Below the pieces are notes generated by a model that worked only from the letters and a program-made list of their open reading frames with translations, was not told the origin of the DNA and made no database searches. From assembly GCA_964414795.1 (NCBI GenBank), contig CAYPWV010000004.1:1591-65590 (forward strand): a stretch of DNA of 64,000 bases, written 5' to 3'. This stretch comes from an uncultured Gammaproteobacteria bacterium. GTDB lineage: Bacteria > Patescibacteriota > Patescibacteriia > UBA9934. The position numbers and the translations under genes are program-made. Each line of letters opens with the position of its first letter. The first letter of the stretch is position 1. Shown here piece by piece: positions 19,995 through 59,086 of the stretch.

Positions 19995-20194
19995 GTATGG
20001 GAAAGTGGGAAGTAGAGAGTTGTTAGTTTGAAGTGAGTGGATGCTATGTTTTGTCGTGATACAGACAACAGACTACAGACGGCAGATGGGGAAAGTGATC
20101 AGAATCAGATATCTCTTATCTGTCGTCTGTAGTCTGTTATCTAAAAGGAACATCTTTTCACTTCAAACTAACAACTACAAACTTCATAACTTCA
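19995..20194. repeat. MITE-like composite palindromic repeat, family A copy 1
   Basis: Terminal inverted repeats AGTTGTTAGTTTGAAGTGA / TCACTTCAAACTAACAACT; internal IR CAGACTACAGACGGCAGAT / ATCTGTCGTCTGTAGTCTG. Shares GTTTGAAGTGAGTGGATG and ACAGACGGCAGATGG modules with the copies at 42.3, 44.3 and 58.8 kb. Confidence 0.7.
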
Positions 20195-20196
20195 AA

Positions 20197-20231
20197 AGAA
20201 AAGACTCCGTGCATATGCACGGAGTCTTTTC
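20197..20231 (-). terminator. Perfect palindromic hairpin with flanking A/T runs; terminator of tRNA-Thr (bidirectional)
   Basis: AAAAGACTCCGTGCAT|ATGCACGGAGTCTTTT directly 3' of the minus-strand tRNA. Confidence 0.6.
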
Positions 20232-20234
20232 TTC

Positions 20235-20310
20235 TGGAGCCGATGACCGGGCTCGAACCGGTGACCTGCGGTTTACGATACCGCTGCTCTACCAACTGAG
20301 CTACATCGGC
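20235..20310 (-). tRNA. tRNA-Thr (anticodon CGT)
   Basis: RC folds as acceptor GCCGATG/CATCGGC, D-arm GCTC-AGTTGGTA-GAGC, anticodon stem GCGGT/ACCGC, loop ATCGTAA, T-arm ACCGG-TTCGAGC-CCGGT, CCA. Confidence 0.85.
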
Positions 20311-20416
20311 GTTTAGCGGACACAGTAAACCACGAAAGGCACTTTTCGTAAAGCAAAGTTTCCCCTGCACTCCAGACGAGGTAGAATACCTTAAAAGAAG
20401 ATAAAAAAAGTATTTT

Positions 20417-21952
20417 ATGGTGGATGGATACGGTCCCGAAATAATCGGAGGTAGAGAACAAGAGAAAACAATTCTTGAACAAAAAATAACGACTTTCTAT
20501 ACCTATGTTGCATCACTTTCTCGTGAGCTCAGTGCATCTGCACGAAGAAAGGCGGTCGTAGAAGCAATCAATGAACGATTTACCGAGAAAGAGTGCAAAC
20601 TTCTCGAAAAAGTTCACGACATTCTTTGGATTGATACGGAGGTATTTTGTAAAAGAACCGGTCAAGAAGTTGCACCCCCAAGCCTCCGTGAGGATATACG
20701 ACGTATTGTAATACTCGAAGAAAAGAATCCCGGAATAGGAAAACGTATCTTTGAAAAATATGGGTATCTTCCTAAAAAAGATGTTTCGTTGGAAGAAATT
20801 CAATGTATGGATACATGCACTGCAGATTTCTTTCATGCCTTTCTCGAGCATTTCGATAATACTCGTGAAGGAGATATACAAACCCTCATAAATATCTGCA
20901 CCGGACTAGAGTCAGCAATACAGCAGAGCAACAAATTATCAGCCGTTCTTGAAATCTTTGATATGTTAGAAAAAAATACTGTTCTCTTGAGAAAGATAAG
21001 AGGTTTACTATCAGAACTTCATACATATGCTATTGATGATCTTCTTGAAGAACTAAGAAACAAAAACGAATATCTCAATAGTGTTGCACAACGCAACAGT
21101 CTTTTTATTACCACCTGTCGTAGATCAGGAATCATAAATCAGGAAAAAACAGTTGCTGAAAAAGAAAAATTGGAAACAGCGCTTGCGCTCATGCTTGGTG
21201 CAAAAGGACTTAACGTGCGAGATTGCTTAGAAGCTTGGCAAAGCACTACTATCGATAACCAGCAAACCATAGAAAAAAATCTCTACGCCATTGATAAGCT
21301 TGAACAAGCAATGCCAGGATCAGCCGCAAAGCTTTATAAACAGTTCGGCATTCGTCACTTCGCACGCTATCCCCAAAAGCTTCTTCTTCGTCAAGCGGAG
21401 TATGCAGAAAATGACACGGTGCCTTATGGAATTGCCCTCTATCCAACCGCTGATCGCAACGGCACATTTTCTTATGACGAAAAAATGTTCACAAATTTGA
21501 GCAATGACTTAAAGGGCATAGGTTGCGAACTTCGTGTAATGGAAGTGAAGGGAAAGCACGATATTGGTCGAAGATTTTTTATGCTTCGGGATGCTTTTCC
21601 AACTCATCTTATTGAGTTTGCAGTCATTGGTGGCCATGGAGATGCAGAGAGCATCACCCTAGGAGGCGATCAAGCGCGAGAAACACTTTCGAAAAAAGAT
21701 TTAACAGGAAGAGGGATGAAAAGAATCGGGGGGTTTTTTGTTCATCAACCATCAATCGTATTGGTGTCTTGCTCTACAGGAAAGGAATCTGGAATAGGTC
21801 AGGAAATTTCGAGTATTTTTGGCGCAGAAGTTACAGCGCCCAAAGAAGACGCAGCTCGTGCAAGTATTCGTGCACAAAAGCGAAACGGAAAAATTATCTT
21901 AAACGCCACCTACAACGTAGAAAAAAACCAATACCTACAGGGAAGATCGTAA
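20417..21952 (+). CDS. Large hypothetical protein with C-terminal caspase-like (CHAT/peptidase C14-type) His-Cys dyad
   Basis: The beta-strand+GHG motif (EFAVIGGHGD) and, about 45 aa later, the beta-strand+Cys motif (IVLVSCSTGKE) match the caspase/CHAT catalytic dyad geometry. The N-terminal ~370 aa is helical. Confidence 0.5.
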   Translation: MVDGYGPEIIGGREQEKTILEQKITTFYTYVASLSRELSASARRKAVVEAINERFTEKECKLLEKVHDILWIDTEVFCKRTGQEVAPPSLREDIRRIVILEEKNPGIGKRIFEKYGYLPKKDVSLEEIQCMDTCTADFFHAFLEHFDNTREGDIQTLINICTGLESAIQQSNKLSAVLEIFDMLEKNTVLLRKIRGLLSELHTYAIDDLLEELRNKNEYLNSVAQRNSLFITTCRRSGIINQEKTVAEKEKLETALALMLGAKGLNVRDCLEAWQSTTIDNQQTIEKNLYAIDKLEQAMPGSAAKLYKQFGIRHFARYPQKLLLRQAEYAENDTVPYGIALYPTADRNGTFSYDEKMFTNLSNDLKGIGCELRVMEVKGKHDIGRRFFMLRDAFPTHLIEFAVIGGHGDAESITLGGDQARETLSKKDLTGRGMKRIGGFFVHQPSIVLVSCSTGKESGIGQEISSIFGAEVTAPKEDAARASIRAQKRNGKIILNATYNVEKNQYLQGRS

Positions 21953-21955
21953 CAA

Positions 21956-22762
21956 TTACCACACAAAAACCCATGCAGGATGTTCTTCGGCGTGGATGCG
22001 CAAAACGTCAGCAAGCGTGGGCTTGTTGATAGCAATGCCGCGCAGATGAATCCAAGCCGTGTCGTCTTTTCCTCCTGCATCAACCACTTTTAACACCCAA
22101 AACGCATCGGTACCCACAAAATCAGCACGAACTTCATCAACCTGCATCGTTGCCGCACCTTGCGCCCATGCAGGAAGATCGGAAACAAGGAAGACCCCCA
22201 AGTCTCCCCCGTTTATCGCCGAACTATCTTCCGAAAAATACCGCGCAATATCCGCAAAGGGCATATCGAGATCAATCTTATCGAGCACATTTTGTAAACG
22301 CATTTCTTGCGAAGGAAGCGCTTTATCTCGCAGTGCATGTGCAGCTCGCATGCGGAAAAAAGGTTCTTCGAGATACTTTTCTTGCTCATACGAAGAAATC
22401 CCTGCATGTGCAAGCGCTGCCGTGTCGCTCTCCGTAAAAAGCGCATCTTGCACCGGCACATCCGCACCATCTAAAAGATCTTTTACACGGGCATCACGCA
22501 CTACAAACGCAAGGGCCTTGGGAAATGCTTCTTGATACGTAGATGCAACCTGAAGCGCCACAAACGCATGTACCGTTTCAACCACACGATGATACGAAAC
22601 CGGAGAACCATGTACCCACGCAGGTGGAAAAACGAGATATGAAACACCTCGCATCATGCCGTCCCCCACATGAAAAAAAACCGCACTCAATTGCAGCAAA
22701 AACCACAATACAAACACCCCACCCCCTACCCCCCACCCCCATTTTTTCTGACGCTCCGTCAT
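21956..22762 (-). CDS. Membrane-anchored parvulin-type peptidyl-prolyl isomerase (PrsA/PpiC-like)
   Basis: N-terminal TM and PpiC motif INGGDLGVFLVSDL. Confidence 0.7.
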   Translation of the reverse strand: MTERQKKWGWGVGGGVFVLWFLLQLSAVFFHVGDGMMRGVSYLVFPPAWVHGSPVSYHRVVETVHAFVALQVASTYQEAFPKALAFVVRDARVKDLLDGADVPVQDALFTESDTAALAHAGISSYEQEKYLEEPFFRMRAAHALRDKALPSQEMRLQNVLDKIDLDMPFADIARYFSEDSSAINGGDLGVFLVSDLPAWAQGAATMQVDEVRADFVGTDAFWVLKVVDAGGKDDTAWIHLRGIAINKPTLADVLRIHAEEHPAWVFVW

Positions 22763-25119: not shown

Positions 25120-25196
25120 TGGTGGACTGGACGAGGATTGAACTCGCAACTCCCGAATGATAAGTCAGGTGTGTTACCAATTAATACCACCAGCCC
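25120..25196 (-). tRNA. tRNA-like gene with atypical D/anticodon arms (identity unassigned; possible pseudo-tRNA)
   Basis: RC gives a good acceptor (GGGCTGG/CCAGTCC with one G-U), a canonical T-arm GCGAG-TTCAATC-CTCGT and CCA. The anticodon stem CCTGA/TCGGG encloses an 8-nt loop CTTATCAT, or a 7-nt loop with a mismatch and anticodon TAT. The D-stem is poor; length is 77 nt. Confidence 0.4.
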
Positions 25197-29194: not shown

Positions 29195-29275
29195 TCCTTT
29201 GGAAATTCAGGGGGAAATGCAAGTGAAAGTTTGAAGTATGAAGTTGGTAGTTTGAAGTGAAAGGATGTTATTTTT
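29195..29275. repeat. Partial family-A repeat (GTTTGAAGT x3 arm + TTCCCCCT/AGGGGGAA hairpin)
   Basis: AGTGAAAGTTTGAAGTATGAAGTTGGTAGTTTGAAGTGAAAGGATG shares the GAAGT-rich arm with the full copies. Confidence 0.5.
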
Positions 29276-29621
29276 TAATAGTTTTTATAAAAGCGTTGAG
29301 CATATTCATCTCTTCATCTAACAATTGTTTTGCTTTTCCCATATCCCGTACATCAATCATTTTTATGCGTAATGCACACAGACATTGCGTCTGTAATTCC
29401 GCAAGAGAGCCTCTTGCCGTAGCGAGAAATGAAAGAAAATCTTTCTTTGTAGAACGATAACTGCCTTCCGCAATGTTGCTCGCTACGCTAATAGCAGATC
29501 TTCTCATCTGAGAAACTAATCCGAATCTTTCACTGTCAGGAAATATATTTGTAACTCTGTATATTTCCTCCACAATCTCCATGGCTTTTTGCCAAATAAG
29601 TAACTTGGTATGACTAAACAT
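29268..29621 (-). CDS. Four-helix-bundle protein (TIGR02436-like)
   Basis: LLIWQKAMEIVEEIYRVTNIFPDSERFGLVSQMRRSAISVASNIAEGSYRSTKKDFLSFLATARGSLAELQTQ matches the family signature. Start taken at MFSHTKLL. Confidence 0.65.
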   Translation of the reverse strand: MFSHTKLLIWQKAMEIVEEIYRVTNIFPDSERFGLVSQMRRSAISVASNIAEGSYRSTKKDFLSFLATARGSLAELQTQCLCALRIKMIDVRDMGKAKQLLDEEMNMLNAFIKTIKK

Positions 29622-30100
29622 AGAAAACCTTCCATTCACTTCAAACTTATCACTTCCCCACTTCACACTCTCACATATTGCCCGGGGCAAGGACTCCCCT
29701 CCTTACCCCTTTAGGACTTAGATATCAACGACTGCTGGCCCAGCTGACGTTTTGTGTACGCAGTGATTGTCCACGAACACAGTGCGATCAGGTGCGCGAG
29801 CACGGGGTGATACAGACGTAACCGAACGTTCCTTGGAAAGATTCGTCTGTGCGAATTCCTCGGTCGTTCTGTATCTATCTCACCACAAAAAAAGAGGTGT
29901 TCAGGACGTGTGCACTAAAAAAAGCATCTTTTTCCAACATTTCCCAAAGAAAATAAAACATCTTGATACACTGTCAGAAAACACTGCACACTTTCTTCTC
30001 CAACGCGCGATAAAAAGCTCCTCGCTGTTCTGCACCTTCTTACACAAAAGAAAAAGTTGTCAGCCGTGCACAAACTGTGGATAAGTGGTGAAAAATAGCC

Positions 30101-30135
30101 TCGTCATTCCGGACTTGATCCGGAATCCATCGCAT
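30101..30135. repeat. REP-like palindromic repeat, family B (single copy)
   Basis: TCGTCATTCCGGACTTGATCCGGAATCCATCGCAT. The same consensus occurs at 45.5, 50.3 and 62.7 kb. Confidence 0.65.
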
Positions 30136-30726: not shown

Positions 30727-31125
30727 ATGCATATAAAATCTTTTGACAATTGGAATCTTCATAAAAAGAATCTTGATGTGCGAGAAAATCTCTTTCTTTT
30801 TCATGAGGGTGAAATTTGGTGGAGCGCGGTAGGTGTCAATATCGGTGATGAGTCTTGTGGAAAAGGTGAAACATTTCGAAGGCCAGTACTTATTTTGAAA
30901 AAGTTGTCACAAAAAAGCTTTATTGGCATTCCTCTTTCAACAAAGAGAAAAGCGGGATCTTGGTTTACAGAAATACGTATCCATAACGAAATACAAACTG
31001 TACTTCTCTATCAAATTCGCATGTTCAGCACACGAAGATTTCAACGAAGACTTACAACATTAGATTATGCTGATTTTCTTCACATAAAAAATAAGCTTGA
31101 GAACTTGCTCAAGCTTACTTCTTGA
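30727..31125 (+). CDS. MazF/PemK-like mRNA interferase toxin; no adjacent antitoxin seen
   Basis: HEGEIWWSAVGVNIGDESCGKGETFRRPVLILKK...IGIPLSTKRK resembles the MazF/EndoA core (G.E..G.RPVLV ... T). Confidence 0.45.
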   Translation: MHIKSFDNWNLHKKNLDVRENLFLFHEGEIWWSAVGVNIGDESCGKGETFRRPVLILKKLSQKSFIGIPLSTKRKAGSWFTEIRIHNEIQTVLLYQIRMFSTRRFQRRLTTLDYADFLHIKNKLENLLKLTS

Positions 31126-32332: not shown

Positions 32333-35300
32333 TTATGGGGTAACAATAATTACTCCGCTATATTCGACCCAAGGATCAATATCTGAATTATCATCAGGAT
32401 AAATTGCGTACGAACACTCGCTATAAGTTTCATCAGATGCCGATTGTATATCATTACCAACCCCCGCAAAGCATCCTGATCGGCCGTCTTCATCGGCGAT
32501 GTTGCCGTCTTCGCACGTGCCCGTACACCAGCCCCAGTTATCGCGGATGTGGATGCGGGGTTTGAAGACGCAGGCGTCGGGGACGTCGTCGCCGGATTGA
32601 TCTACCCAGCAGGGGAAGGAATCGTAATCGTCATCGCCGTCGGCGGGGCTGTCGGAGCAGGCGGCAGAAGAATCGCGCAAGATTTCGGACGAACACGTGT
32701 AGATGTGATTGTACGTGAAGTAATACGGATCACAGCTTTCATCCGTGAGTCCCCACTCGGTTTCTAAGTCACATTTTGAATTTTGCGTGCCTTCTTGCAA
32801 GCCGCGGGCGTTTTTGAAGAAGTTATCATCGGCGTCGGATCCGGTGAAGGAACCGCCATCCACATCATCTCCCCAATCCACCATTACCCTACGAATAGGC
32901 AGCTGATTTTTATCTGCAGCTGCGTAGAATTTGATGGTAGCATTGAAGAACTGAACTCCGGATTGGTCACCCGTGTCTTGGCTGTTGAGCGTAATAGCCT
33001 CTTCTGTTCCCTCTTCACATAACACGCCGTCGTCAGAACAAGACCCTACATCAACCGACCACACTTGCGGAGCAGTTCCCTCTGCGGGACGAACATCGTA
33101 TGTCGTGTACGCATCTGCATCATCAGCACCGTAGCGATCGGCAGAAAGACCTGCGCTTCCCCATGCAGCATTCCAAGAATAAAGTGTGTCGTGGATGCCA
33201 ATATCTGCCGCAGCAAAGAGTTGGTTAACTCTACTAAAAACCGAAGCTGTTGCACCACTTGTAGGACTTACTGACCAAACCTCATCAACCGAGAAGCCCA
33301 CCTTATACAGCTTTAACGTAAAGTCGATGAATGAACGTGCGAGTGCCGTTGCAGGAGCCGTGAAGTTTTCGTATGCATCCGGCGCGTATTCGATGAAGTC
33401 ACCATCGCAAGAATTGAGATTGTCGGTACCATTAGGTGGTACCAAATTTCCATCACCATCCTCACATGCCGCAACTTGGAGCGGCGTTTCTGAGGCATCG
33501 CGGGTTCCTGGATTGGTGGTGATGAATCCAAACGGCGTAGGAACGGTATCGGCAGAGTATTCCATGTTGGGATAATCTGCGTCATTGATATTCGTGAATG
33601 TGGAGTTTGGATTAAGAATACGGTCCGTAAACGCGTATCCTGCGTAATTCGTTGCATCACTTACCTGGAGCACATTTTTACAAGACACATTCTCAAAGCT
33701 GGTATCTTCCTGGAAATGAAGATAGCGATAATTTCCATAAGAATCTCCTGCGTAATCTCCGGAATCGATATTGAAGACATTTGCCGCGAGTTCATCGGTG
33801 TATTCAACACCTTGCGCACGACAACTCTTGAGCGCTGTTGCCATATTGTCGAATTGCGCGAAACCATCGGCAGCAGCATCATCGCCATCACTTGGTTGAC
33901 GCCCTACCGCAAAGGAATTTTCAGGAAGAACACTCTCATAGTCGAAAGCTGAACTATATGCTTCAAGCATTGCCTCGGTGTATGCACCATCTGGGTCACA
34001 CGAACCTCCATCAGCATATGCACCCAGAGGAATGCAGACGTACGGGCAGTCATTTACTTCGAGTGAGGAATCACCTGTACATGCATCTGCCATATGGCCC
34101 AAACCATCCTCCCAAGCTGCTTGACCAAGCAACGTCCAGTATCCGTCAGGACATACGGCATTGTCTCCACACGCACTTATCGTTTCACTTGTATATGACT
34201 TACCGCGAGTAAGATCGCCGTCCCAATCGCTCTCCGCACATGCAATGTCGTTGTTATCATAAGAACCCGTATCCTCGGGAACGTTGCTCGTTCCCAAATC
34301 CACGTAAAAGTCGGAGTTTACACATGCGTAGGTGTCTTCAAAGTAGCCGGCTCCCGTGTATTTTGCTTGCAGATCGGTGTCTCCGGCCAATTCATCAACG
34401 GGCAACCATGAAATACATGCTTTCTTATTGCGATCGCCAAGAATGTTTGTTGACGTATCTTTCTCTAAACAGAAACCGTTGAGGCCGTACATCACATCTT
34501 CACGCGTGGTTTTTGCGCATGTTCCGCCTTCACCGCACTGTTCATTTTCTGTGCAGTAGCCACCTTCCCGATCACCGCTTTCACACAATCCCAACTGACC
34601 GTTTACATCAACACAGGTATCCGATGAACAGTTTGCATCTATAGTACAAATCGTTCCCGCATCAGCATAGGTTTCGAGATCTCCTCCGCAAACGGAGAAG
34701 TCTGCATCCCAGTCTTTGCCGTACACGCGAGAGTCTTGACCGTCACCAAACGTTACCTTGGTGTACGAACAATCGCAATCCTCACCATACGCACAGGTGG
34801 TGGTATTTTCAAAGCCAGAAAGCAGGCTGTACGGTAATGCATCGCCCTGCGGATCGCTTTCAACGGATCCTGGGTTTGCGGGCTCGTACCAACTTTCCAC
34901 CACTTCGTTGGGGAATGGACTATTGCTTTCGGGATATGCACGACAAATCTTTCCTTCGGTGGTGCCGTCGGTGTAGGTTTCACCGTTTGGTGTAAGCAAA
35001 CACTGACTATTTACGCACGAACCCAACTTCATTGCGGCATCGGCAACAAATGTTTCGCTTGAATCGCACGTGGTTGCATCCCCGGTCGCAGAATCATAAT
35101 CCTCAATTTCAACATCATCGCCCACATCTGCACATGCACCGCCGTAACACGTTTGTCCTTCGCTGCAATCTGCTGCGGTTTGACATGCGGTGCTGCTCAC
35201 GTCGTAACACGAACCCACAATACATGCGCCGTCTGAACACTGGTCGCTCGTTGCACATGCAGCGCCATTTTCTTCGCAGTATCCTACCGAGCACGACTCT

Positions 35301-38300
35301 CCTTCATCTTCTGAGCACGTACCCGCATTCAAGACAAGAGCGTAATCTTTTGCCTCAACGATTCCCGCAGCAACGGCGTCATCCGGCGACAAACACGTTC
35401 CTGCACCCGCAGGACCGCATCCTGCGTCCACATCATCACAGGTGCCTCGAAGATCTCCGTTGAAGTCACAATAGCCGATAGGACTTACATCAGCCTGAGT
35501 GAGCGCCTGAACTGGGAAAAGATTAGGGATCGCCATGCCCGAGTATTCATTGCCGTACCACGATGTATCGCGACTTGCATACCAATCCGTATCATAAATT
35601 ACTTCGGGTTTTTCAAAATCCCAATCGGAACAGAAAGAAGATCCTGTTGTTGCATCGTAATCTTTGCACAGTGCAATATCGCCACACGTGGTTACAAAGC
35701 TTGCGGTTGTGGCATCCCACTGCGTATTGGTACTTGAACATGAAAGCCATTCTGAGCAGGAACGATCGCGGTTTACTTTAAGCACGCTGTTCGTGTCGTT
35801 TTCCTGACGCGGCACGCTTGAGAATCCTGTTTCTGCAGAACCGCTTCTCCACTCACTGAATGCTCCTCCAAAAGAGGCTGTCGCAGAAAATGGGTCAACA
35901 CGCACCTGCGTTGCACAAGAAATTGCTTCAATATTTGCGCCGGATTCGCTTTGCACGAGCGGACAATCGGTAGCGTCGTAACACGAGCCACCGAACGTGT
36001 AGAGATCATCGCGATCGTAGTCGCGCGAACTAGTACGTTCGTCGGTAAGTTTTTCTTTGTATGTTGCTCCGTCGCTTAAATCGTACACTTCGCCGTAATC
36101 GTACACGCAGCGCGTTGCACATAAGTCGATCGTGTCTCCGCTTGCCGTGGTGATAGTAGTGTCTCCTGCGTTCTCGCAATCGATAGGGTCAACAAGACCA
36201 TACGCCTCTGTGCCAAAGAGGGTATCCGCATGACGACTTGCTACTTCGGTTGCCGATGCATTTGCCGAGAGCGACGTATCGCCGGTGTCGTAGAACATGG
36301 CGCAGCCGTTTTTGAGGGAAACTTGTCCATCACACTTTTGGCTATCTGAGAGACCGTACTCGCTTAGGCTGTCGTTATTGAGGTAGAAGTAGGATGTACC
36401 GTCGGTTGCGCCGTAGAGCTCGCCATCGTCTTGCGCAAGTTTATCTTGGAATTCGGTACATGTGTCGTACGTTGCTGAACACGTACCTGCCCAGCCCGTA
36501 AATCCATCATCGCCATTATTCCAAATACCCGATTCCGTTCCTCCAATAACGTACGAAGGATTTTCTGCGTTACACGTTTCATCTGATGCGCAGTCTGCGT
36601 TGCTTCCACAGGCATCTCCTTCGTTGCCAAGGGTATCTTCACATGTTCCGTAACAGAAATCATCGGTTTCGGTGCGGAACCAGCCGGTGTATGCCGTGCC
36701 GTCAACCGTCACATCGGTACGATATTCGCACGTTTGGTTGAGCGGATGTTTAAAGTAGAACGTTTCTGCTTCATTTGTAGTAAATGCATCACAGAAAAGC
36801 TCATCGTGCGCACAGAGAATATCGTCGTACGTATCCGGAAGATTCATGAGGTACACGCTGTCGGCTCCCTCGGTGCTGTTGCGATCTTGACTCCACTCCG
36901 GATCACCCAGTTCCATACATCCCGCAACGTCGTCATCACACGTTACCGCATCGTTTACCACAAGGAACATGTCTTGATCTGCCGGCACCACGGTTGTTTC
37001 TGGGCCGTAGGAAACCGCCGTATTATCCATGTCCCATGCAGGAGTAAAGCCGTCTTGCGTAAACAAGCATGACGACTCTCCTGCGGAAATCGTACATAAG
37101 TACGCTGAATCGGTATCAAATGAAGTATCACTAAAGGTAAAGTAATAACATGCGGTTGCCGACGTTGCGATGTCGGGCAAACCGTCGCCATCTATATCGA
37201 GGTTGTTACACGTTGCGTGGTAGGTTTTTGCAGACGTGCTTTCGCTTTCTTGCGTTTTAAAGAATGCCGCACACCCCACCTTATCTTCATCGCACAACGA
37301 ACTAAAGCTCTTCAAATACGCAGTATCCCCTTCTTGCGTGGTGTACTCCTGGCAACCAAGGTAATACTGCGGGCTTGTTTCTCCAGTGAGCGACTGATCG
37401 CATGACGCAGGTGTAACCCAAGAATCGCGAATGACATTGAGGCTTTCTTCTCCTTCGCGGAGCACCACATTGTCCACGTACGCCGAACCCGTAGGAATAA
37501 GCACGAGTGTTGTGCCGTCACCAAAATCGGGATACGTATCCGCATCCATAATGAGCGGGCCGAGATTAAGCACTTGCCAACCGTCATCAAGCTCAACCGC
37601 ATCATCAAAAGCAATGTCGATTTCTGGCGCAGCAGGATCGGCATTGAAGTCAAAACCAAGTTGCAGCGTTCCGGTTCCCTTTGCAACCACGCTTACCGTG
37701 TAGGTTTTTCCTGCAAAAAGTTCGTTATCAAGCGTTCCGCAGTACGTACTTTCTTCTGAGATGGTGCATTCGCCACCAAAGCTCCGCGATGTGCCATCGC
37801 AGCCCGACGCATCGGTACATGCAGATCCGTTATCGACAATGAATGACGTAACCGGACCGGTAAGCAGCATGGAATGACCGTCTGCCGCAAGCGATTCGTT
37901 ACTGTACGTTGCATCCGATGCCGACTCTGCATCCCAAGAATTCAACGTTCCGTCTTCAAAAAGATCTTCAAATACCAAGCGACTGTTGCGGCTTCTGCCT
38001 CCTGCATACGCACGACAGCCATTTGCAGCTTCTTCGCACGACGTGCTTTCTTCGCTGTATCCGTAGTAGCGGCACTCACCCGAATCTGAAACATAGTAAC
38101 CGCCTGAATCTTCACACGTTGCCTCCTGATCTGCGGCAGTATCACCTGCGATTGTGGTTTTGCGATATGCCTGACATGCATCATTTACCGTAACGGTTTG
38201 TTGCCAGTTTCGGTAATGAATATTGCCGTTTTCATCATAGAATTCGCGACAATCGGGGTTGGTGAAAATGTCTGCACGCGCGTTGCAATCCTCACTATCC

Positions 38301-42224: not shown

Positions 42225-42298
42225 ATGCGTCTCAAAGTATATCAAAAAATGCACCTCCGTATTCAGGGAAGGTACATCATGTGTGCATAGGTTTTTGG

Positions 42299-42582
42299 GG
42301 AAGTTCTGAAGTGGTGAAGATATGAAGTTGGGAAGATGTGAGTAGGGGCGGAACATCTTCCGCCCGTACTGAAGTGAGTGGATGTTATGTTTTTGTTGGG
42401 ATGAAGATGAAAGACAGCAGACTACAGACGGCAGATGGAAGAAATGATTTGAGGTCACAAGATCCTGAGCTCGGCGAAGGATCTCGAGAAGACCATTTGT
42501 CAGGAGACTTTTCCGTTCCATCCGTCCGATAGGTTCTTCCGATCACTTCAAACTCTTAACTTCCAGCTTCAAACTCTTCTCC
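42299..42582. repeat. MITE-like composite palindromic repeat, family A copy 2
   Basis: Modules are a GAAGT-rich arm, GGGCGGAACATCTTCCGCCC hairpin, GTACTGAAGTGAGTGGATG, GACAGCAGACTACAGACGGCAGATGG, CACAAGATCCTGAGCTCGGCGAAGGATCTCGAGAA, and the CACTTCAAACTCTTAACTTCCAGCTTCAAACTCTTCTCC arm. About 80% similar to the copy at 44.3 kb. Its end is translated as the rsmA C-terminus. Confidence 0.75.
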
Positions 42583-43367
42583 AAAACACTCCACACCTCC
42601 AACGACACCTCCTCGGGTCGGGCGAGCGGGCTGAGGCCTTGTGCTGCAAGAAGATCGCCTATTTCTTCGCGTTTTCCCGCGCCTGCTTGGGCGAGGGTTT
42701 GCCGCAATTGCCTGCGAGGATGTGCGAAACCTTTTTTTGCGAGTGCAATAATGCGTTCAGCACGATCTTGCGGATACTTTTGCTCTGCAGTAAGTTTTAA
42801 AACCACCGAGTCTACCTTGGGCGGAGGAGTAAAAGCTCCTGGCTTTACCGTGCAAATACGCTTTCCCTCGGTTTTTAATTGCATTGCCACAGAAAGCACA
42901 CTCATGCCGGGCGGATGCGCGAGGATGCGATCTCCTATTTCTTTTTGCAACATCACTACCGCAGACACCGGAGGATGCGCGCACCAAAAAACATCATTCA
43001 CAATTGCGGTTCCGACATTATAGGGAAGATTGCTCACCAAAAGCCAAGGCTCTCCTTTGAGAAGATCTTGCCAATGTATTTCCGTTGCATCGGCATGCAC
43101 AAGCGTTGCTTGGGGAAAGCGATCTCGCAAATCGGGAAGTAAATCTGCATCAATTTCAATAAGCATCAAATCCTCTCCCCTTCCCTCTTGCACGAGCTTT
43201 TCATAGAGTGGCACCGTGAGCGCCCCACGACCTGGACCTATCTCAACTATTTTCTTTGCGGAGTCAAAATCTACCGCCGCAAGAATCTTCTGAATGATTG
43301 CTGCGTCGTGAAGAAAATGCTGGCCAAAGCTTTTTTTAGCGGCTGAATGTTGCTTTGTACCAATCAT
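42543..43367 (-). CDS. rsmA: 16S rRNA (adenine1518/1519-N6)-dimethyltransferase
   Basis: QHFLHDAAIIQKI...IVEIGPGRGALT is the KsgA/RsmA SAM motif. The last ~13 codons are encoded by the repeat arm. Confidence 0.9.
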   Translation of the reverse strand: MIGTKQHSAAKKSFGQHFLHDAAIIQKILAAVDFDSAKKIVEIGPGRGALTVPLYEKLVQEGRGEDLMLIEIDADLLPDLRDRFPQATLVHADATEIHWQDLLKGEPWLLVSNLPYNVGTAIVNDVFWCAHPPVSAVVMLQKEIGDRILAHPPGMSVLSVAMQLKTEGKRICTVKPGAFTPPPKVDSVVLKLTAEQKYPQDRAERIIALAKKGFAHPRRQLRQTLAQAGAGKREEIGDLLAAQGLSPLARPEEVSLEVWSVLEKSLKLEVKSLK

Positions 43368-44277: not shown

Positions 44278-44280
44278 AGT

Positions 44281-44577
44281 TGGGAAGTTATGAAGTAATG
44301 AAGTTCGGAAGAGATGAAGTGGCGGAACATCTTCCGCCCGTATCAAGTGAGTGGATGTTGTTTTTTTGTGGGATGAAGATGAAAGACGGCAGACTGCAGA
44401 TGGAAGAAATGATCTGAATTCACAAGATCCTGAGCTTTGCGAAGGATCTCGAGAAAATCCATTCGTCAGGAAACTTTCTTAGTCGTGCGATAGGTCCTTC
44501 GCTGTCGCTCAGGATCCTACTCAGTAAAAAACTACCTTTCACTTCAAACTTATAACTCCAAACTTCACACTTTCTCC
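44281..44577. repeat. MITE-like composite palindromic repeat, family A copy 3
   Basis: Same module order as copy 2 (GGCGGAACATCTTCCGCC; CAAGTGAGTGGATG; GACGGCAGACTGCAGATGGAAGAAATGATCTGA; CACAAGATCCTGAGCTTTGCGAAGGATCTCGAGAA; CACTTCAAACTTATAACTCCAAACTTCACAC). It sits between two paralogous epimerase genes. Confidence 0.75.
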
Positions 44578-45482
44578 CTATACCATTTCACCGTTTCCTC
44601 TATTCCCTCCCCCAACTGCTTAACCGGCTTCCAGCCAAGAACATCTTGCGCTTTTGCGTAAGAAAGTGAAACACGAGAAACGAGGTCGGTGACTTCTGGG
44701 CGATAGAGGGGCTTTTGCGATGCACCAACCGCCTGCGCAACGTGTGCAAATATTTCTTCGGTAGACGTTTCAATGCCTGTTCCGATATTCATCACCGTTT
44801 CGTTGGAACTAGCGAGTGCGCGCAAAAACGCATCAACCACATCGGCAACATACACGTAATCACGTGTTGTTTTTCCGGTTCCGTTAATAAAGGGCGACTC
44901 TTTGGCAAGAAGCTTCTTGGTAAAGATGGCGATCGCTCCGCATTCCTTGCTTCCATCTTGGCGAGGACCGTACACGTTTGCCAAACGCAATGTGCACGTT
45001 GAAAGACCAAGTTGCAACGTAAAATAGCGCAAATAGCGCTCACCGGTAAGCTTACTTACCGCATAGGGTGTGAGCGGTTTTGGCACTGCGTCTTCGGTAA
45101 TGGGTAGAATATCTTGGTTGCCATATACCACACCGGTCGAGGCAAAGAGGACACGTTTTGCACCCGAAATGCGCGCCGCATCCAAAACGTTAATTGTACC
45201 GAGGATATTATGCTCCGCATTTTCCACCGGTTCACGCACCGAAGCGCGATCATCAATATGTGCCGCTAAGTGGATAACGTATTCCGGACGAACATCCATA
45301 AACATATCTGCCAAATGCGTATCGCGAATATCGCGCTGTACATAGGTTGCTTTTTCATTACCCCATACCGGATGCGCAGGAACAATATCCACCACCGTCA
45401 CCTCATCTCCACGCTCAACAAGCGCATCTACAAGATGCGAGCCAATGAATCCCGAACCGCCGGTTATAAGAATACTAGACAT
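44565..45482 (-). CDS. NAD-dependent epimerase/dehydratase, second paralogue
   Basis: MSSILITGGSGFIGSHLVDALVERGDEVTVVD. Confidence 0.85.
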   Translation of the reverse strand: MSSILITGGSGFIGSHLVDALVERGDEVTVVDIVPAHPVWGNEKATYVQRDIRDTHLADMFMDVRPEYVIHLAAHIDDRASVREPVENAEHNILGTINVLDAARISGAKRVLFASTGVVYGNQDILPITEDAVPKPLTPYAVSKLTGERYLRYFTLQLGLSTCTLRLANVYGPRQDGSKECGAIAIFTKKLLAKESPFINGTGKTTRDYVYVADVVDAFLRALASSNETVMNIGTGIETSTEEIFAHVAQAVGASQKPLYRPEVTDLVSRVSLSYAKAQDVLGWKPVKQLGEGIEETVKWYREKV

Positions 45483-45489
45483 AGCATGC

Positions 45490-45574
45490 GCGTCATCCCG
45501 GGCTTGACCCGGGATCCATCGTTATTTAATTAAGCTATTGGCGATGGATGCCGGATCGGTGTCCGGCATGACGA
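45490..45574. repeat. REP-like family B, inverted pair
   Basis: GCGTCATCCCGGGCTTGACCCGGGATCCATCGTT ... AACGATGGATGCCGGATCGGTGTCCGGCATGACG, between the prfB stop and the epimerase start. Confidence 0.7.
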
Positions 45575-45575
45575 A

Positions 45576-46691
45576 TTACACAGAACTCTCCCTCCTCTTT
45601 TCTCTTCGCAAATACGACTCGATGAAAGCAAGGATATCACCTCCAAGGACTGCTTCGGTATCTGTGGTTTCTTCATCGGTACGATGATCTTTTACCATTT
45701 TATACGGATGAAGCACGTAACTGCGAATTTGGTTGCCCCACGCGGCGGTTTTGTGTTCGCCTTTTACATCGGCAATTTTTTCTGCGCGCGCCTCTACCAT
45801 GAGCCGATAGAGCTTTGCTTTAAGAAGACGCATGGCGATTTCTTTGTTCTGCGATTGCGATCGCTCGTTTTGACACGAGACGACGATATTTGTAGGAAGA
45901 TGCGTGATGCGAATTGCGGAATATGTGGTGTTTACCGATTGCCCACCCTTGCCGGACGAAAGATACGTATCAATACGCAAGTCATCTGGATCAAGCTCAA
46001 TGGCGGACGCGTCTACCTCAGCAAATTCGGGAAGCACTTCGCAAAGCGCAAACGTGGTGTGACGCATTTGCTCGGCGTCAAATGGCGAAATGCGCACCAA
46101 GCGATGCACGCCATGTTCGCTTTTTAAATACCCATACGCATATCTTCCCTTAATGACAACCGTAATACTTTTGTATCCCGCAACTTCCGCAGGAGATTCT
46201 TCCATAACCTCTACCGACCATCCCTGCTTCTCTGCAAAGCGCGTATACATGCGGAGTAACATTGCCACCCAGTCATTTGCATCCGTTCCTCCAGCTCCCG
46301 CGTGGAGAGAAATAATGGCGTTTCGTGTATCAAATTCTCCCGAAAAAAGCATCTTAAATTCCATGCTCGCAAAACGTTCTTCAATAGCCGCAATCCCCTG
46401 TTCTACCTGCACCTTCGACACCTCATCATCCGTGTTTTCAACAAGTGCGAGTAAATCTTTATATTCTTGTGTGTCCGCTTTTATTTTTTGCCACGCTTCA
46501 GCTTCTTTTTTTAAATCGGATGCTTCTTGCGCAACTGCACGTGCTTTTTCGGGAGCGTTCCAAAATGCAGGATCGTTCATCTCCGCTTCAAGCTCTTGTA
46601 CACGCACAAAAACCGCATCAAGCCGCAAGGTTTCCCATGCGGATTGAATGCGCTCTTCGAGTATCTTTATGCGATCCGCAAGTAACGACAT
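45576..46691 (-). CDS. prfB: Peptide chain release factor 2
   Basis: SPF tripeptide and GGQ motif (GGQSVNTTYSAIRITHLPT); 371 aa as one continuous ORF with no programmed frameshift site. Confidence 0.9.
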   Translation of the reverse strand: MSLLADRIKILEERIQSAWETLRLDAVFVRVQELEAEMNDPAFWNAPEKARAVAQEASDLKKEAEAWQKIKADTQEYKDLLALVENTDDEVSKVQVEQGIAAIEERFASMEFKMLFSGEFDTRNAIISLHAGAGGTDANDWVAMLLRMYTRFAEKQGWSVEVMEESPAEVAGYKSITVVIKGRYAYGYLKSEHGVHRLVRISPFDAEQMRHTTFALCEVLPEFAEVDASAIELDPDDLRIDTYLSSGKGGQSVNTTYSAIRITHLPTNIVVSCQNERSQSQNKEIAMRLLKAKLYRLMVEARAEKIADVKGEHKTAAWGNQIRSYVLHPYKMVKDHRTDEETTDTEAVLGGDILAFIESYLRREKRRESSV

Positions 46692-49159: not shown

Positions 49160-50596
49160 TCATTTTATCTCGTCAAGCACTCCCTGGTCGAGAGTGCTAA
49201 TTCTACTCTGCCCTCCCGCAAAAACAAGAGCAAAAGAAACCGCGGTATAGGCCATTCCGCTCCAAGATGTCCACAGGGCGTGATCGAAGAGAGCGAGGGA
49301 GAAGAGAGTGGTGAAGAGGGGGTAACAGATGGTAGACGGTAGATGGTAGATAGTGAGAGTCGAAAAATGAGACTCAGAAACATCTGTAGTCTGTCGTCTG
49401 CCGTCTGTAGTCTTGATACAAAGGAATATCCATACTCCTAATCCCAGCACTCCACACCCAACTACTCCCACTTCTGCAAGAATCAGCAAAAACACATTAT
49501 GCATCGGCTGGTAGGCCCACGCAGGAAGTGAAGCTCCCTGTACTTGCGCAACGGCCTGAGGATATTCGTATAAGCCCGTGCCAAAAAGACCGTCGCGATA
49601 CATGACTTGCCACCAAGTGCTCATCTGCTCTACGCGCTCTGCAATCGACTGTTGTTCGGTAAATGATTGTCCGCGCAGTGCAAGGATGCTCGGAGAAATA
49701 AATTGCAGCGACCACACGAGAACGGGAAGAAGAAATGCGAGTAAAAGTATTTTTTTATGCTGACGTGAAACTGCATATGCCGCGATGCTTGCACACGCCA
49801 TCGCAAGCGCTGCACTGCGAGATATGCAAAAGAGGACGAGGAGGATGGATGTGATCAAGATAGTTATTTGTAATGAGCTTGGTGCCATCTTGTGTCGGGA
49901 TGACGAGGTAGCTAGAGCTCCAAAAACAAGTGCGATTGCTACGCCAAAAATATTAGGGTGTGGAAATGATCCGTACATGCGCAATATTCTATCGCCATGA
50001 ACCGTAATGATCGCATCTCCAAGATGCGCTGCGTTGCGTGATGCAAGACCAAAAAATGTACTTGCAGGCGACCATCCCGCAATCATCTGCCAAACGCCCA
50101 ATAATAAAACGGGAATAAAACTCGCAAGCAACACTATAACAACACTGCGCACATCTTGTTTTGCGGCTTGATACGTTGCGTATCCAAGAAATATCGCAAA
50201 ACATATATTCAGTATCCAGGCATGGGCGGGGGAAGGATACGTGAGGAAAAAGATGAGGAGAGAAAACAGACAACAGATGGCAGACGGGAGACATGCGTCA
50301 TGCCGGACTTGATCCGGCCTGCCTGTCCGGTAGGCAGGCATCCATCGCATTAAGAAACGATGGATCCCGGGTCGGTGCCCGGGATGACGAATGTGACGAA
50401 CAACCAATCTCCATCCCACTGCCGCACCCAATGCAAGAAGCATGGTGACGTACACGCTGATGACGCCAAATTCAGATTCGGTGGTTCCGACTATAGGTTG
50501 CCAAAAGATGTAGCGCATTTGCCAGGGCAATAAAAAAAGACATGCGAGAGTGAGAAATTTCGGCCATTGTTCTCGTAACAATAAATACCATCTCAT
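49160..50596 (-). CDS. O-antigen ligase (Wzy_C/WaaL-like) family polytopic membrane protein carrying an in-frame REP-like repeat insertion
   Basis: Wzy_C-like RMYGSFPHPNIFGVAIAL. Residues ~65-100 (VRHIRHPGHRPGIHRFLMRW..DACLPSAICC) are encoded by the family-B repeat pair at 50296-50393. The 3' end (49290-49440) overlaps a partial family-A repeat, so the exact stop is uncertain. Confidence 0.55.
   Translation of the reverse strand: MRWYLLLREQWPKFLTLACLFLLPWQMRYIFWQPIVGTTESEFGVISVYVTMLLALGAAVGWRLVVRHIRHPGHRPGIHRFLMRWMPAYRTGRPDQVRHDACLPSAICCLFSLLIFFLTYPSPAHAWILNICFAIFLGYATYQAAKQDVRSVVIVLLASFIPVLLLGVWQMIAGWSPASTFFGLASRNAAHLGDAIITVHGDRILRMYGSFPHPNIFGVAIALVFGALATSSSRHKMAPSSLQITILITSILLVLFCISRSAALAMACASIAAYAVSRQHKKILLLAFLLPVLVWSLQFISPSILALRGQSFTEQQSIAERVEQMSTWWQVMYRDGLFGTGLYEYPQAVAQVQGASLPAWAYQPMHNVFLLILAEVGVVGCGVLGLGVWIFLCIKTTDGRRQTTDVSESHFSTLTIYHLPSTICYPLFTTLFSLALFDHALWTSWSGMAYTAVSFALVFAGGQSRISTLDQGVLDEIK
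49290..49440. repeat. Partial family-A repeat (inverted orientation)
   Basis: GTAACAGATGGTAGACGGTAGATGGTAGATAG ... CATCTGTAGTCTGTCGTCTGCCGTCTGTAGTCTTG is a palindromic version of the ACAGACGGCAGATGG module. Confidence 0.55.
50296..50393. repeat. REP-like family B inverted pair, located inside a coding sequence
   Basis: GCGTCATGCCGGACTTGATCCGG-(CCTGCCTGTCCGGTAGGCAGG)-CATCCATCGCAT ... AACGATGGATCCCGGGTCGGTGCCCGGGATGACGAATG. The reading frame of the host ORF is maintained. Confidence 0.7.
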
Positions 50597-54576: not shown

Positions 54577-54589
54577 AAGTGAAAAGTTT

Positions 54590-54680
54590 GAAGTTGATAG
54601 TTAATAGTTTGAAGTGATTGGTATCCTTCTTTCTAAACGAATGACCTGGCGGAACAGCCAGGTCAGATATATGCAGAATA
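54590..54680. repeat. Partial family-A repeat (GTTTGAAGT x2 + GACCTGGCGGAACAGCCAGGTC hairpin)
   Basis: Shares the GTTTGAAGTGA motif and a GGCGGAACA-type hairpin with the full copies. Located between the nusA start and the yraN stop. Confidence 0.5.
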
Positions 54681-56366: not shown

Positions 56367-56427
56367 AGAGTATTCGCAGTATACAACAAAAAAACCTCAA
56401 AACTCTTCAAGAGTAATGAGGATTTTT

Positions 56428-56596: not shown

Positions 56597-56683
56597 GCGG
56601 ACGTGGCGGAATTGGTATACGCGCTAGCTTGAGGGGCTAGTGCCAGCAATGGCTTGAGGGTTCGAGTCCCTCCGTCCGCACCA
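56597..56683 (+). tRNA. tRNA-Leu (anticodon GAG), type II with long variable arm
   Basis: Acceptor GCGGACG/CGTCCGC, anticodon stem CTAGC/GCTAG, loop TTGAGGG, variable arm TGCCAGCAATGGC, T-arm GAGGG-TTCGAGT-CCCTC, CCA. Confidence 0.85.
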
Positions 56684-56685
56684 GA

Positions 56686-56716
56686 AAAAGCTCAACTTCG
56701 GTTGAGTCTTTTTTGT
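56686..56716 (+). terminator. Intrinsic terminator (GCTCAAC-TTCG-GTTGAGTC + TTTTTTG) after tRNA-Leu
   Basis: Seen directly. Confidence 0.6.
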
Positions 56717-56765
56717 TGAAAAAATAATTGTTTTCAAATCCCTTCCCTGGTATGCTTTTCTCACT

Positions 56766-57428: not shown

Positions 57429-57531
57429 ATGTACGGGCGGATCAACGTATCCGCCCCCGAATTCTCGTCTTAATACTTCATTTTCACGATCTCATTATGA
57501 GACGCCATAACATGGCGTCTCTACGCCCTCT

Positions 57532-57963
57532 ATGCTTCCAAAATGGACTCCTGTTATCGCTCTTCTTGCATTTATTGGTCTTGCCGATGCTCTTTACCTT
57601 ACCTTGAGTCACTATTTCGGCATTCCTCTTGCATGTGGTCCCTTTTCGGGATGCGAAACGGTAACGTCGAGTGCGTATTCTGTAATATATGGCGTTCCTG
57701 TTGCTCTTGGCGGTGTATTTTATTACACGGCAATGTTCTTTGGCATCCTATTTGCGTGGGAATACAAATCAGTCACGTATTTTAGATATCTGTGTCTTTT
57801 CTCCGTGTGCGGAGTGCTCGCTTCTGGATGGTTTGTATTTGTGATGGCGTTTTTGCTCCACGCGTGGTGTACCTACTGTCTTATTTCCGCAACCACGTCG
57901 ACATTACTGTTTATAACGTGCATGTACGGACGATATGTCACGAAACCGAATATTATTGCCTAG
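57532..57963 (+). CDS. Vitamin K epoxide reductase (VKOR) family protein; DsbB-functional analogue
   Basis: Four TM; loop Cys pair (..CGPFSGC..) and CxxC (WCTYC) in the last helix, as in bacterial VKOR. Adjacent to the DsbA-like gene. Confidence 0.7.
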   Translation: MLPKWTPVIALLAFIGLADALYLTLSHYFGIPLACGPFSGCETVTSSAYSVIYGVPVALGGVFYYTAMFFGILFAWEYKSVTYFRYLCLFSVCGVLASGWFVFVMAFLLHAWCTYCLISATTSTLLFITCMYGRYVTKPNIIA

Positions 57964-58058
57964 CCCAAACGTCCATACTGCGCAGTGAAAAGAGAGGGGG
58001 TAATTTCGAGATGTAAAATAAAAAGCTACAAAAAAATCTCTCCTTAAACGGAGAGATT

Positions 58059-58802
58059 TTAAATGACGAACTTCCGTTCACGGCCGGTGATGACGCGCAG
58101 GCGCGCGGGGAGGGTGCGGAAGGAAAATTCTTGGGCGATGATTTTTTTTCCGTCGGCTTGAAGGGTTACTTGTTTTGGTGCGTAGACGCGCATGTTGGCA
58201 ACGTGCACTTTTCCTACGTCGTGCTTTTTTCCAAAAAGGGATAAACGAGCAAGACGGGTTACGAGCGTTAACTTTCCGTCGGTTGGGCTTACCACGCCTA
58301 CATCCGGCACTTCGGCGGAAAGATTAATATACGAAAATTGTGTTCGGCGTTTTACCGAAAGCGTGTAGCGGTCATCGCACGAAACCACACACCCTGTTCC
58401 GTCCATCGTTGCCTCGTGCAAAAACCGATGACCATTCACCTCGCCCATATCAATATCCTCAACCAAACGCGCAGAAAGAATGTCGCACGCTGCAACGCCC
58501 TGAGGAACGCCCAAAAGTTCTGCAAACGGATTGTCTGGAGTGATGGGAATGTAGCCCACCACGGTGCGCGTTTCTTCAACGGCATTGAGCACTTTTTCGA
58601 GCGTTGCATCGTTTCCTACTGCGACGATCGTTTTGATGCCTTTGCGAATTTCTTGGTGCAACACTTGCTGTACATCGCGAAAAAAAGCAAGCCGGACAAT
58701 GTTGCCGGTAATGCCAAGATCGGTAAGGCGCGTTTCTATGAGACTAATATCTCGCTCGTACCGCCGATCCTGAAGAAAATCATCGTAAACGTAGATGTAC
58801 AT
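58059..58802 (-). CDS. Diacylglycerol/lipid kinase catalytic-domain family protein (DAGK_cat/YegS-like)
   Basis: TIVAVGNDATLEKVLNAV resembles the GGDGT nucleotide-binding motif region. Confidence 0.55.
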   Translation of the reverse strand: MYIYVYDDFLQDRRYERDISLIETRLTDLGITGNIVRLAFFRDVQQVLHQEIRKGIKTIVAVGNDATLEKVLNAVEETRTVVGYIPITPDNPFAELLGVPQGVAACDILSARLVEDIDMGEVNGHRFLHEATMDGTGCVVSCDDRYTLSVKRRTQFSYINLSAEVPDVGVVSPTDGKLTLVTRLARLSLFGKKHDVGKVHVANMRVYAPKQVTLQADGKKIIAQEFSFRTLPARLRVITGRERKFVI

Positions 58803-58804
58803 GG

Positions 58805-59086
58805 GGGAAGTTGGAAGTTTGTAGTTGTTAGTTTGAAGTGAGTGGATGTTGTTTTGAGTAGGATCCTGAGCTCTGCGAAGGATCTATCGGACAACTAAGA
58901 GAGTCTTCTCATAAATGGGTTTCTCTAGATCCTTCCCTTCGGAGGACCTCAGGGCGCCGCGCAGAGCTCAGGATCTTGTGACCTGGAAGTTCCTTCGGTC
59001 GACTTGAAATCTCCCTCAGGATGACACACTAACCTAAAAGCCTTCCTTTCACTTCAAACTCTTAACTAAAAACTTCAAACTCTCAC
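58805..59086. repeat. MITE-like composite palindromic repeat, family A copy 4
   Basis: GTTGTTAGTTTGAAGTGAGTGGATG arm; GGATCCTGAGCTCTGCGAAGGATC with inverted partner GCAGAGCTCAGGATCTTG; terminal CACTTCAAACTCTTAACTAAAAACTTCAAACTCTCACC. Confidence 0.7.

Follow-up and report, generated by a model that had tools for sequence, protein, structure and literature searches.

The 64-kb stretch of DNA analysed here (the window), from an uncultured Patescibacteria-type bacterium, raises the question of what the long palindromic repeats lying at its gene boundaries are and how they came to be there. A sequence-only reading of the window had described them as a dispersed family of composite palindromes, here called Family A, and had likened them to MITEs (miniature inverted-repeat transposable elements). 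The dispersed family is indeed present at gene boundaries (E1 to E6, Table 1), and its E2 member encodes a four-helix-bundle (4HB) protein of the kind found in the intervening sequences (IVSs) of rRNA. From the window and from sampled related loci, we consider it probable that Family A consists of IVS-type hairpin cassettes residing in mRNA spacers instead of rRNA, accompanied by MITE-like derivatives that lack the open reading frame (ORF).

Family A is confirmed as a real repeat family. The arm core GTTTGAAGTGA has 9 exact matches in the window and 10 with at most one mismatch, against an expectation of 1.8 (standard deviation 1.4), and 0 of 100 dinucleotide-preserving shuffles reached 10. 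The matches form inverted arm pairs at 20026(+)/20158(-), 29250(+)/29636(-) and 58831(+)/59049(-), those at 42543(-) and 44539(-) lie in right arms opposite interrupted left arms, and the unpaired match at 54607(+) belongs to a solo arm. Alignment of 11 arms gave the consensus GGAAAGTnTGAAGTTnGTAGTTnnnAGTTTGAAGTGAnTGGATGTTnTTTTTT, in which an AAGTGA core is invariant, and repeat detection returned the arms as direct and inverted families. The arms are ~50 nt long, mutually inverted and 74-87% complementary, and are built of degenerate 7-nt repeats of the GAAGTTT/GAAGTGA type that give a period-7 signal. In minimum free energy (MFE) folds of whole elements the outer arms are paired (-79 to -134 kcal/mol), with z-scores of -3.9 to -10.9 relative to mononucleotide shuffles, so the elements can fold as long hairpins, as had been proposed. 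Likewise, the shared modules were recovered (GGCGGAACATCTTCCGCC hairpin, CAGACGGCAGATGG and the GATCCTGAGC module), and the four copies called full (E1, E3, E4 and E6) lie where they had been placed. The concern that the copies might be assembly artefacts or collapsed repeats can be dismissed, given their divergence from one another and the orthologues found in separately assembled genomes (L044, L003, L179 and L180). The supposed fragment at 29195-29275 proved to be the left arm of a fifth complete copy, E2. Rfam models returned tRNAs alone at the gathering threshold over the window, and nothing credible at E<=1 around E2. The window contains no rRNA, and all copies lie between protein-coding or tRNA genes.

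E2 is the sole ORF-bearing copy in the window, and its ORF is intact, promoterless and co-oriented with the host genes. The product matches PF05635 (E 1.2e-35) and TIGR02436 (E 2.7e-35) and is homologous to the protein of PDB 2GSC (E 3.7e-25). Comparison with the L044 orthologue gave a dN/dS of 0.16, which shows that the gene is under purifying selection. E2 is ancient, with orthologous cassettes in four assemblies (the window, L044, L179 and L180) whose proteins are 61-69% identical. The arm sequences differ among these four orthologues, yet complementarity is retained: duplexes between a cassette's own arms reach -52 to -62 kcal/mol, whereas arms combined across species average -44, and self pairing is best in 4/4 rows. 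This shows that the two arms co-evolve, whether through selection on the stem or through mutual homogenisation of the arms.

In its layout E2 closely follows the IVSs inserted in the 23S rRNA of Coxiella burnetii, Leptospira and others, in which a PF05635 4HB ORF forms the loop (in Family A, in E2 only), terminal inverted repeats make a long stem around the ORF, and a Shine-Dalgarno (SD)-like region lies inside the stem (PMC4990558). In the Coxiella IVS three GACAGAT heptamers precede the S23p ORF and the 28-bp terminal stem is cut by RNase III (PMC4990558); E2 also has tandem heptamers immediately upstream of its ORF, and the second heptamer hairpin type of the window, CAGAYNN, resembles the Coxiella unit. 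ORFs of the 23S_rRNA_IVP family are also present in rRNA insertions of Candidate Phyla Radiation bacteria (bioRxiv 10.1101/2024.02.27.582315). Family A differs from the rRNA IVSs in that it occupies the spacers of protein-coding operons and not helices of 23S or 16S rRNA, in that its arms are longer (arrays of ~50 nt), and in that several ORF-less copies with nested small palindromes occur within 64 kb. Furthermore, the E2 ORF is under selection whereas the Coxiella ORF is decaying. The E2 protein also belongs to the same 4HB superfamily as Avd, the accessory protein of diversity-generating retroelements (DGRs), which has a nucleic-acid-binding fold (PMC10053308). It matched PF22296 and the DGR Avd model NF033474, the latter at 44.1 bits and thus below the cutoff of 80, and unlike Avd it has no reverse transcriptase or template/variable repeats nearby.

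The ORF-less copies appear to be related to the E2 form through their inner ends, of which they retain ~15 nt on each side that flank the ORF in E2. The upstream inner end, GTGAAAGGnnGTTTT(T)AT(G), follows the pattern AAGGnnnTTTT(AT) and corresponds to the spacer with a remnant of the ATG, and the downstream inner end, AAAAnATAACATCC, corresponds to the last Lys codons with a remnant of the stop. A minimal empty form, in which the two inner ends are joined directly, is found in the related metagenome-assembled genome (MAG; locus L031). The loops of the ORF-less copies contain a CAGAYNN heptamer hairpin, the GATCCTGAGC palindrome and the GGCGGAAC hairpin, in an order conserved between E3 and E4. 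In E3 the outer arm is followed by the GGCGGAACATCTTCCGCC hairpin (42347-42364), the inner arm end AAGTGAGTGGATG (42372-42384), a CAGAC half-array, the GATCCTGAGC module (42461-42484) and then the right arm (42529-42590). The idea that the interiors of E3 and E4 encode conserved small ORFs was rejected, as indels disrupt the frame between the two copies on direct reading. CAGAC-type arrays are themselves found beside 4HB genes: in the related cassette L179 one separates the arm from the 4HB start codon, and at L172 they flank the gene. Together with the Coxiella GACAGAT repeats, this makes both heptamer types of the window 4HB-arm types, and E1 looks like one heptamer type nested within the other.

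Two further fragments had been listed. The one at 49290-49440 shares the CAGAYGR heptamer module only; it has no GAAGT arms and lies inside a Wzy-type ORF. That at 54590-54680 holds up as a solo arm (E5) abutting the start of nusA, with a small GGCGGAAC-type hairpin beside it.

Table 1. Coordinates within the window of the Family A elements and of the hairpins and gene associated with them.
Feature	Coordinates	Strand	Description
E1, ORF-less cassette	19995-20196	-	GAAGT-type arms 19995-20050 and 20144-20196 enclosing a CAGACNN-heptamer hairpin, 20056-20142
E2, complete cassette, 464 bp	29209-29672	-	Arms 29212-29267 and 29622-29672; loop is entirely the 4HB ORF
4HB protein gene, 117 aa	29268-29621	-	PF05635 23S_rRNA_IVP / TIGR02436; homologue of PDB 2GSC
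Terminator-like hairpin and T-run downstream of E3	42254-42271	-	Conserved with compensatory changes in the related MAG
E3, ORF-less composite copy	42296-42590	-	Collinear with E4; right arm 42529-42590
E4, ORF-less composite copy between two epimerase genes	44278-44585	-	Orthologue in MAG H41-bin180_1, L003 2421-2637
Stand-alone CAGAYGR-heptamer hairpin	49325-49413		Without GAAGT arms; in frame inside Wzy/O-antigen-ligase-like ORF 49160-50596(-)
E5, solo arm	54578-54631	-	ACUUC type on mRNA; directly abuts nusA start (ATG 54576)
Small hairpin GACCTGGCGGAACAGCCAGGTC beside E5	54643-54664		Related to the GGCGGAAC hairpin of E3 and E4
E6, ORF-less copy	58803-59090	-	Arms 58803-58858 and 59030-59090 enclosing a GATCCTGAGCTC...GAGCTCAGGATC palindrome

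All genes that flank Family A copies are on the minus strand, and the order on the coding strand is constant: a stop codon (or a tRNA and its terminator), a GAAGU-type arm, the loop, an ACUUC-type arm and the next gene. E1, for example, lies between the terminator hairpin of a tRNA-Thr gene and the start codon of an ftsE-like gene (ATG 19980). This polarity was found in 16/16 arms or elements of the window and the related MAG, with the GAAGU sense after a stop codon or tRNA and the ACUUC sense before a start, and the count takes in ~8 solo arms, where symmetry alone would not impose the rule. The purine-rich arm stands directly after the stop codon or tRNA and sometimes supplies the stop. RsmA owes its final 13 codons and its stop to the right arm of E3, and ~3 final codons of epimerase 2 likewise come from a 5' arm; the claim that arms are read as codons therefore stands for these last codons, whereas the 'first codons' also reported are artefacts of taking the longest ORF. 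The ACUUC arm is G-free, and the 3' arms of E1, E4, E5 and E6 end 0-14 nt ahead of an ATG (those of ftsE, epimerase 1, nusA and the DAGK-like gene) with no SD site. SD sites are absent window-wide, however: in the 18 nt before the start, hardly any gene of the window carries an SD motif, so that a G-free array before the start codon fits the normal leaders of this genome. A TATACT/TATAAT-like box lies merely 6-10 nt upstream of several starts (for example at 42234-42260 and 19980-19995), and these leaders suggest that translation in this host is SD-independent and possibly leaderless.

The positions of the individual copies allow another proposal to be weighed, namely that the repeats are terminators or attenuators that share sequence through common function. 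The hairpins do end genes, and in the related MAG GC-rich terminator hairpins lie beside some of the solo arms. The Family A stems, however, are AT-rich duplexes of 35-50 bp with no T-run after them. E3 is parted from the true start of the next gene (ATG 42234) by a separate, canonical and conserved terminator hairpin and a TATACT box. The spacer between the bactofilin stop (59087) and the DAGK-like start (58802) is filled entirely by E6, and both E4 and E6 are located within apparently co-transcribed strings of genes. A conserved protein gene in the loop of one member would also be difficult to reconcile with a terminator, and we regard this explanation as very improbable.

The MITE analogy requires a distinction. 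As an analogy it is apt, since the ORF-less copies keep the inner ends of the ORF-bearing cassette, but a classical MITE is a different matter: it would have arisen by deletion from a DNA transposon (IS630, Tc1 or IS200/IS605-like) and be moved in trans by a transposase whose gene lies at another place in the genome. Such an origin would account for the terminal inverted repeats, the multiple dispersed intergenic copies, the hairpin potential and the one apparently recent copy, E3. Reading the flanks of E1 to E6 directly revealed no consistent direct repeat, although very short target-site duplications (TSDs) could be concealed by the fuzzy boundaries, and the flanks continue the palindrome instead. 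No transposase, integrase or reverse transcriptase gene is present near any copy, nor in the 64 kb save for a small helix-turn-helix (HTH)/terminase-like ORF in an unrelated island, so the cognate transposase that had been suggested was not found within the window. The sole ORF-bearing member encodes a 4HB protein. The strict orientation relative to transcription, solo arms included, is a further objection, as is the fact that the heptamer arms differ between related cassettes and stay complementary, which inverted repeats recognised by a transposase do not do. On the evidence of the window, a classical MITE is thus improbable, although less so than a terminator.

How the copies arose can be approached through the nearest genome, MAG H41-bin180_1, which is collinear with the window over 41.7-49.8 kb and has an RsmA that is 70% identical. 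E3 and E4 lie 2 kb apart and are collinear over the 278 nt at which they are 82% identical, whereas E4 and its orthologue in this MAG are only 61% identical. The site in L003 that is orthologous to E3 lacks the GAAGT arms and has a CAGACGG hairpin alone. Since E3 resembles E4 more closely than E4 resembles its orthologue, and since the E3 site differs in the related MAG, an E4-like unit must have given rise to E3, or converted it, once the two species had separated, which shows recent intragenomic copying or conversion. The spacer 3' of rsmA in more distant relatives holds other heptamer-like hairpins, a bare terminator or nothing, which argues that the elements are dispensable and turning over. 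The two epimerases that E4 separates had been taken as a sign of repeat-mediated duplication; with only 36% identity, and with both genes and the same spacer element kept in the genome whose RsmA is 70% identical, they are old paralogues and that proposal falls.

These comparisons also bear on what we see as the most serious, if still unlikely, competitor: that the heptamer arrays evolved in the host by slippage in situ at gene boundaries and were kept for translation initiation or mRNA stability without SD sites, a role already suggested for TAACTGA repeats, the 4HB gene being a passenger or encoding an array-binding protein. The ACUUC arrays abut SD-less starts, as has been described for the TAACTGA heptamers (PMC4679880), and in a window whose genes almost lack SD sites G-free leaders are normal. 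The array ends are fuzzy with no TSD seen, orthologous hairpins stay at the same site while their sequence drifts, and GAAGTTT arrays, most of them lacking a 4HB gene, are spread over many phyla. On the other hand, ~50 nt of ordered, non-periodic sequence is common to the copies, including the inner ends and whole composite interiors, and slippage in situ would not yield the identity of E3 and E4, which exceeds that between orthologues. The spacers are empty in some relatives, so that the arrays are dispensable, and the inversion and co-evolution of the arms point to a stem and not to a single-stranded leader.

A link between 4HB genes and heptamer arrays can be seen well beyond this genome. 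Using a period-7 score of >=0.71 in a flank as the threshold, 26 of 36 non-redundant 4HB loci from several phyla qualified, compared with 3.6% of 804 control ORFs (binomial P ~5e-30). The arrays are short, tandem, usually of 7 nt and mostly mutually inverted, so 4HB genes are usually bracketed by inverted heptamer arrays in the loci sampled. The array unit varies by lineage (GGAGTTA, GCCCTAG, GTTGAGC, GTGACGA, GGCAGAA, AGAGTGG and others). Among annotated loci the 4HB gene is co-directional with both neighbours in 10/10, and in unrelated genomes these neighbours are housekeeping pairs: cysD/cysN, S18/yebC, metK/ahcY, pth/ychF and epimerase/epimerase. The 28-nt arm pattern itself was found at 43 loci in at least 15 phyla among the species-representative genomes scanned, whereas ~0.3 would be expected by chance, a figure that we estimated from the collection's size and the 21 bases that the pattern specifies. 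The matches are mostly (GAAGTTT)n arrays, often with a complementary array a few tens of nt away. A search for earlier accounts of heptamer-flanked 4HB genes outside rRNA, which covered part of the literature so that absence is no proof of novelty, turned up only the remark on the Coxiella IVS; the start-proximal TAACTGA heptamers have been described separately, with no connection drawn (PMC4679880). In the gammaproteobacterium Thiohalophilus sp. (L137, JAXHMV010000011.1) a 4HB cassette with (GGAGTTA)x8 and (TAACTCC)x3 lies between two NAD-dependent epimerase genes, a neighbourhood of the same kind as that of E4; this could be coincidence or a preference for polysaccharide loci.

If Family A does consist of IVS-type cassettes, we propose that each would be transcribed within the host operon. 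No sigma-70-type promoters were found inside E1, E3 and E4, and the lack of promoter-like sites in the units and the constant co-direction of the 4HB gene with its neighbours suggest co-transcription. In the transcript the arms would pair into an imperfect duplex of 35-50 bp, which would be cut by RNase III if it behaves like the stems of the Coxiella and other rRNA IVSs (PMC4990558) and of the Neisseria Correia elements, which are co-transcribed with neighbouring genes and whose stem is bound or cut by RNase III (PMC2649163). Cutting would make the insert tolerable in transcribed spacers and would uncouple the flanking cistrons. New copies would be generated by a copying process, and the 4HB protein would be the most plausible trans-acting factor for the maintenance or spread of the cassettes.

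Several observations weigh against this interpretation. Both co-transcription and RNase III cleavage are argued by analogy. Counts of G-U pairs and MFEs give no preference for the sense strand, and for E1, E3, E4 and E6 the antisense fold is equally or more stable, so a hairpin at the DNA level, or plain symmetry, could be responsible for the inverted arms. No significant remnant of the 4HB ORF was detected in the ORF-less loops by tblastn, maximum-sensitivity HMM search or blastn-short, and the proposed derivation from an ORF-bearing form would rest on the arms and the ~15 nt at each inner end. In other genomes a 4HB gene lies beside just 1/43 of the GAAGTTT-type array loci, which means that such arrays also exist independently of the gene, and at the 4HB locus L140 the arrays on the two sides are non-complementary. 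A mobility protein for Family A was not found within the window.

Comparison with other repeat classes helps to delimit the family. Cyanobacterial short tandemly repeated repetitive (STRR) heptamers are among the comparable heptamer repeats. So are the TAACTGA heptamers, repeated directly in marine Beggiatoaceae, Cyanobacteria and Bacteroidetes (MacGregor 2015, PMC4679880), which like Family A are 7-nt tandem arrays a few nt upstream of starts without a ribosome-binding site, sometimes overlap the upstream stop, are patchy across phyla and vary by indels in 7-nt steps. With a single inverted case among 170, however, they nearly always occur as lone direct arrays, whereas Family A forms inverted pairs that make hairpins; the Family A unit is (A/T)AACTTC / GAAGTTT, and a four-helix-bundle link receives 0 mentions in PMC4679880. 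Correia elements (CREE/NEMIS) and the MITEs ERIC, RUP and BOX (PMC2649163) share with Family A the size of 100-300 bp, the intergenic location, the inverted ends and a variable presence among relatives. Correia elements have defined 26-bp terminal inverted repeats and a TA target duplication (PMC2649163), whereas the arms of Family A are periodic and fuzzy-ended with no TSD seen, and Family A has in addition a strict transcriptional polarity and a protein-coding full-length member. An integron cassette with attC was rejected, as direct reading found no core sites (RYYYAAC ... GTTRRRY), there is no integrase and the neighbours are syntenic housekeeping genes. Repetitive extragenic palindromes and their paired form (REP/REPIN), which are mobilised by RAYT, were rejected as well: these are GC-rich palindromes of 20-40 bp that carry the GTAG or CGTC tag described in PMC3733652, whereas the Family A arms are ~50 nt, AT-rich and periodic.

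Other features of the window were noted in the course of this work. A diverged CAGAYGR-type hairpin occupies the site in L003 (7376-7504) that is orthologous to the stand-alone heptamer hairpin. In both species it is translated in frame within the Wzy/O-antigen-ligase-like membrane protein, as an insert of 132 or 129 nt depending on the species, and as the sequence has diverged with the hairpin retained, the protein evidently tolerates an intragenic insert. Two further period-7 tracts, (CCCCCAN)n and (GGGGTGT)n-like, lie within coding regions at 22713-22741 and 63616-63643. A second and unrelated palindromic family, CGTCATkCCGGrC-nnnn-GAyCCGGvATCCATCG, is CGTC-tagged, REP/REPIN-like and often arranged as inverted pairs; it is located at gene boundaries, such as that of prfA and epimerase 2 (30102-30135, 45489-45576, 50294-50392 and 62681-62790). 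Directly upstream of the E2 cassette four assemblies share a conserved non-coding block of ~400 nt (window 29690-30100, minus strand; L044 1700-2140; L179 1-120; L180 1-320). It contains a perfect DnaA-box-like TTATCCACA, terminates in the hairpin GGGGTAAGGAGGGGAGTCCTTGCCCC and matches nothing in Rfam; the block may represent a regulatory region or an unclassified RNA gene. Downstream of the cassette L179 has glmS in place of the M23 peptidase gene, and a PemK/MazF-type toxin gene (30727-31125, +; E 1.4e-10) lies near the E2 locus.

Further away, a Gabija-like defence pair at 11219-15003 comprises an AAA_15 and OLD-TOPRIM ATPase (11219-13267) and a UvrD-family helicase (13171-15003), with two N6/N4 DNA methylases, one fused to ParB_N, and the small HTH/terminase-like ORF beside it. 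The surrounding region of low GC content (~7.8-17.5 kb; GC 0.38-0.42) suggests an integrated mobile island. A tRNA-like gene at 25120-25196 (-), to which ARAGORN gave a 4-base anticodon 'tatc' and no assigned amino acid, scored just 38.8 bits with the Rfam tRNA model and may be a frameshift-suppressor-like or degenerate tRNA. A single ORF of 3063 aa at 32333-41524 (-) is typical of the giant surface proteins of Patescibacteria.

These results have a bearing on the annotation of Patescibacteria genomes: the arms are at present taken for gene extensions or spurious ORFs, and they give real C-terminal codons to housekeeping genes such as rsmA. The main interest lies in the association, across phyla, of inverted heptamer arrays with 4HB genes, through which a long-standing question becomes testable: the function of the rRNA IVSs and of their S23p/4HB ORF has been unclear for ~30 years (PMC4990558). 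The presence of the IVS architecture outside rRNA, together with the empty derivatives and the association of 4HB genes with arrays, would turn an rRNA curiosity into a general and testable cassette model. We put forward, as a speculative extension, that 4HB genes may be the signature cargo, and perhaps a trans-acting factor, of a widespread and hitherto unrecognised class of promoterless hairpin cassettes with inverted heptamer-array ends, which would colonise transcribed spacers in general, both rRNA helices and operon junctions, leave ORF-less heptamer hairpins behind (some of them in coding genes) and spread by a mechanism other than classical transposition, for example by RNA-mediated or array-guided copying or conversion. 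If this were true, such a class of cassettes would unify the rRNA IVSs, the 'orphan' heptamer repeats at start codons and the large unexplained TIGR02436 family.

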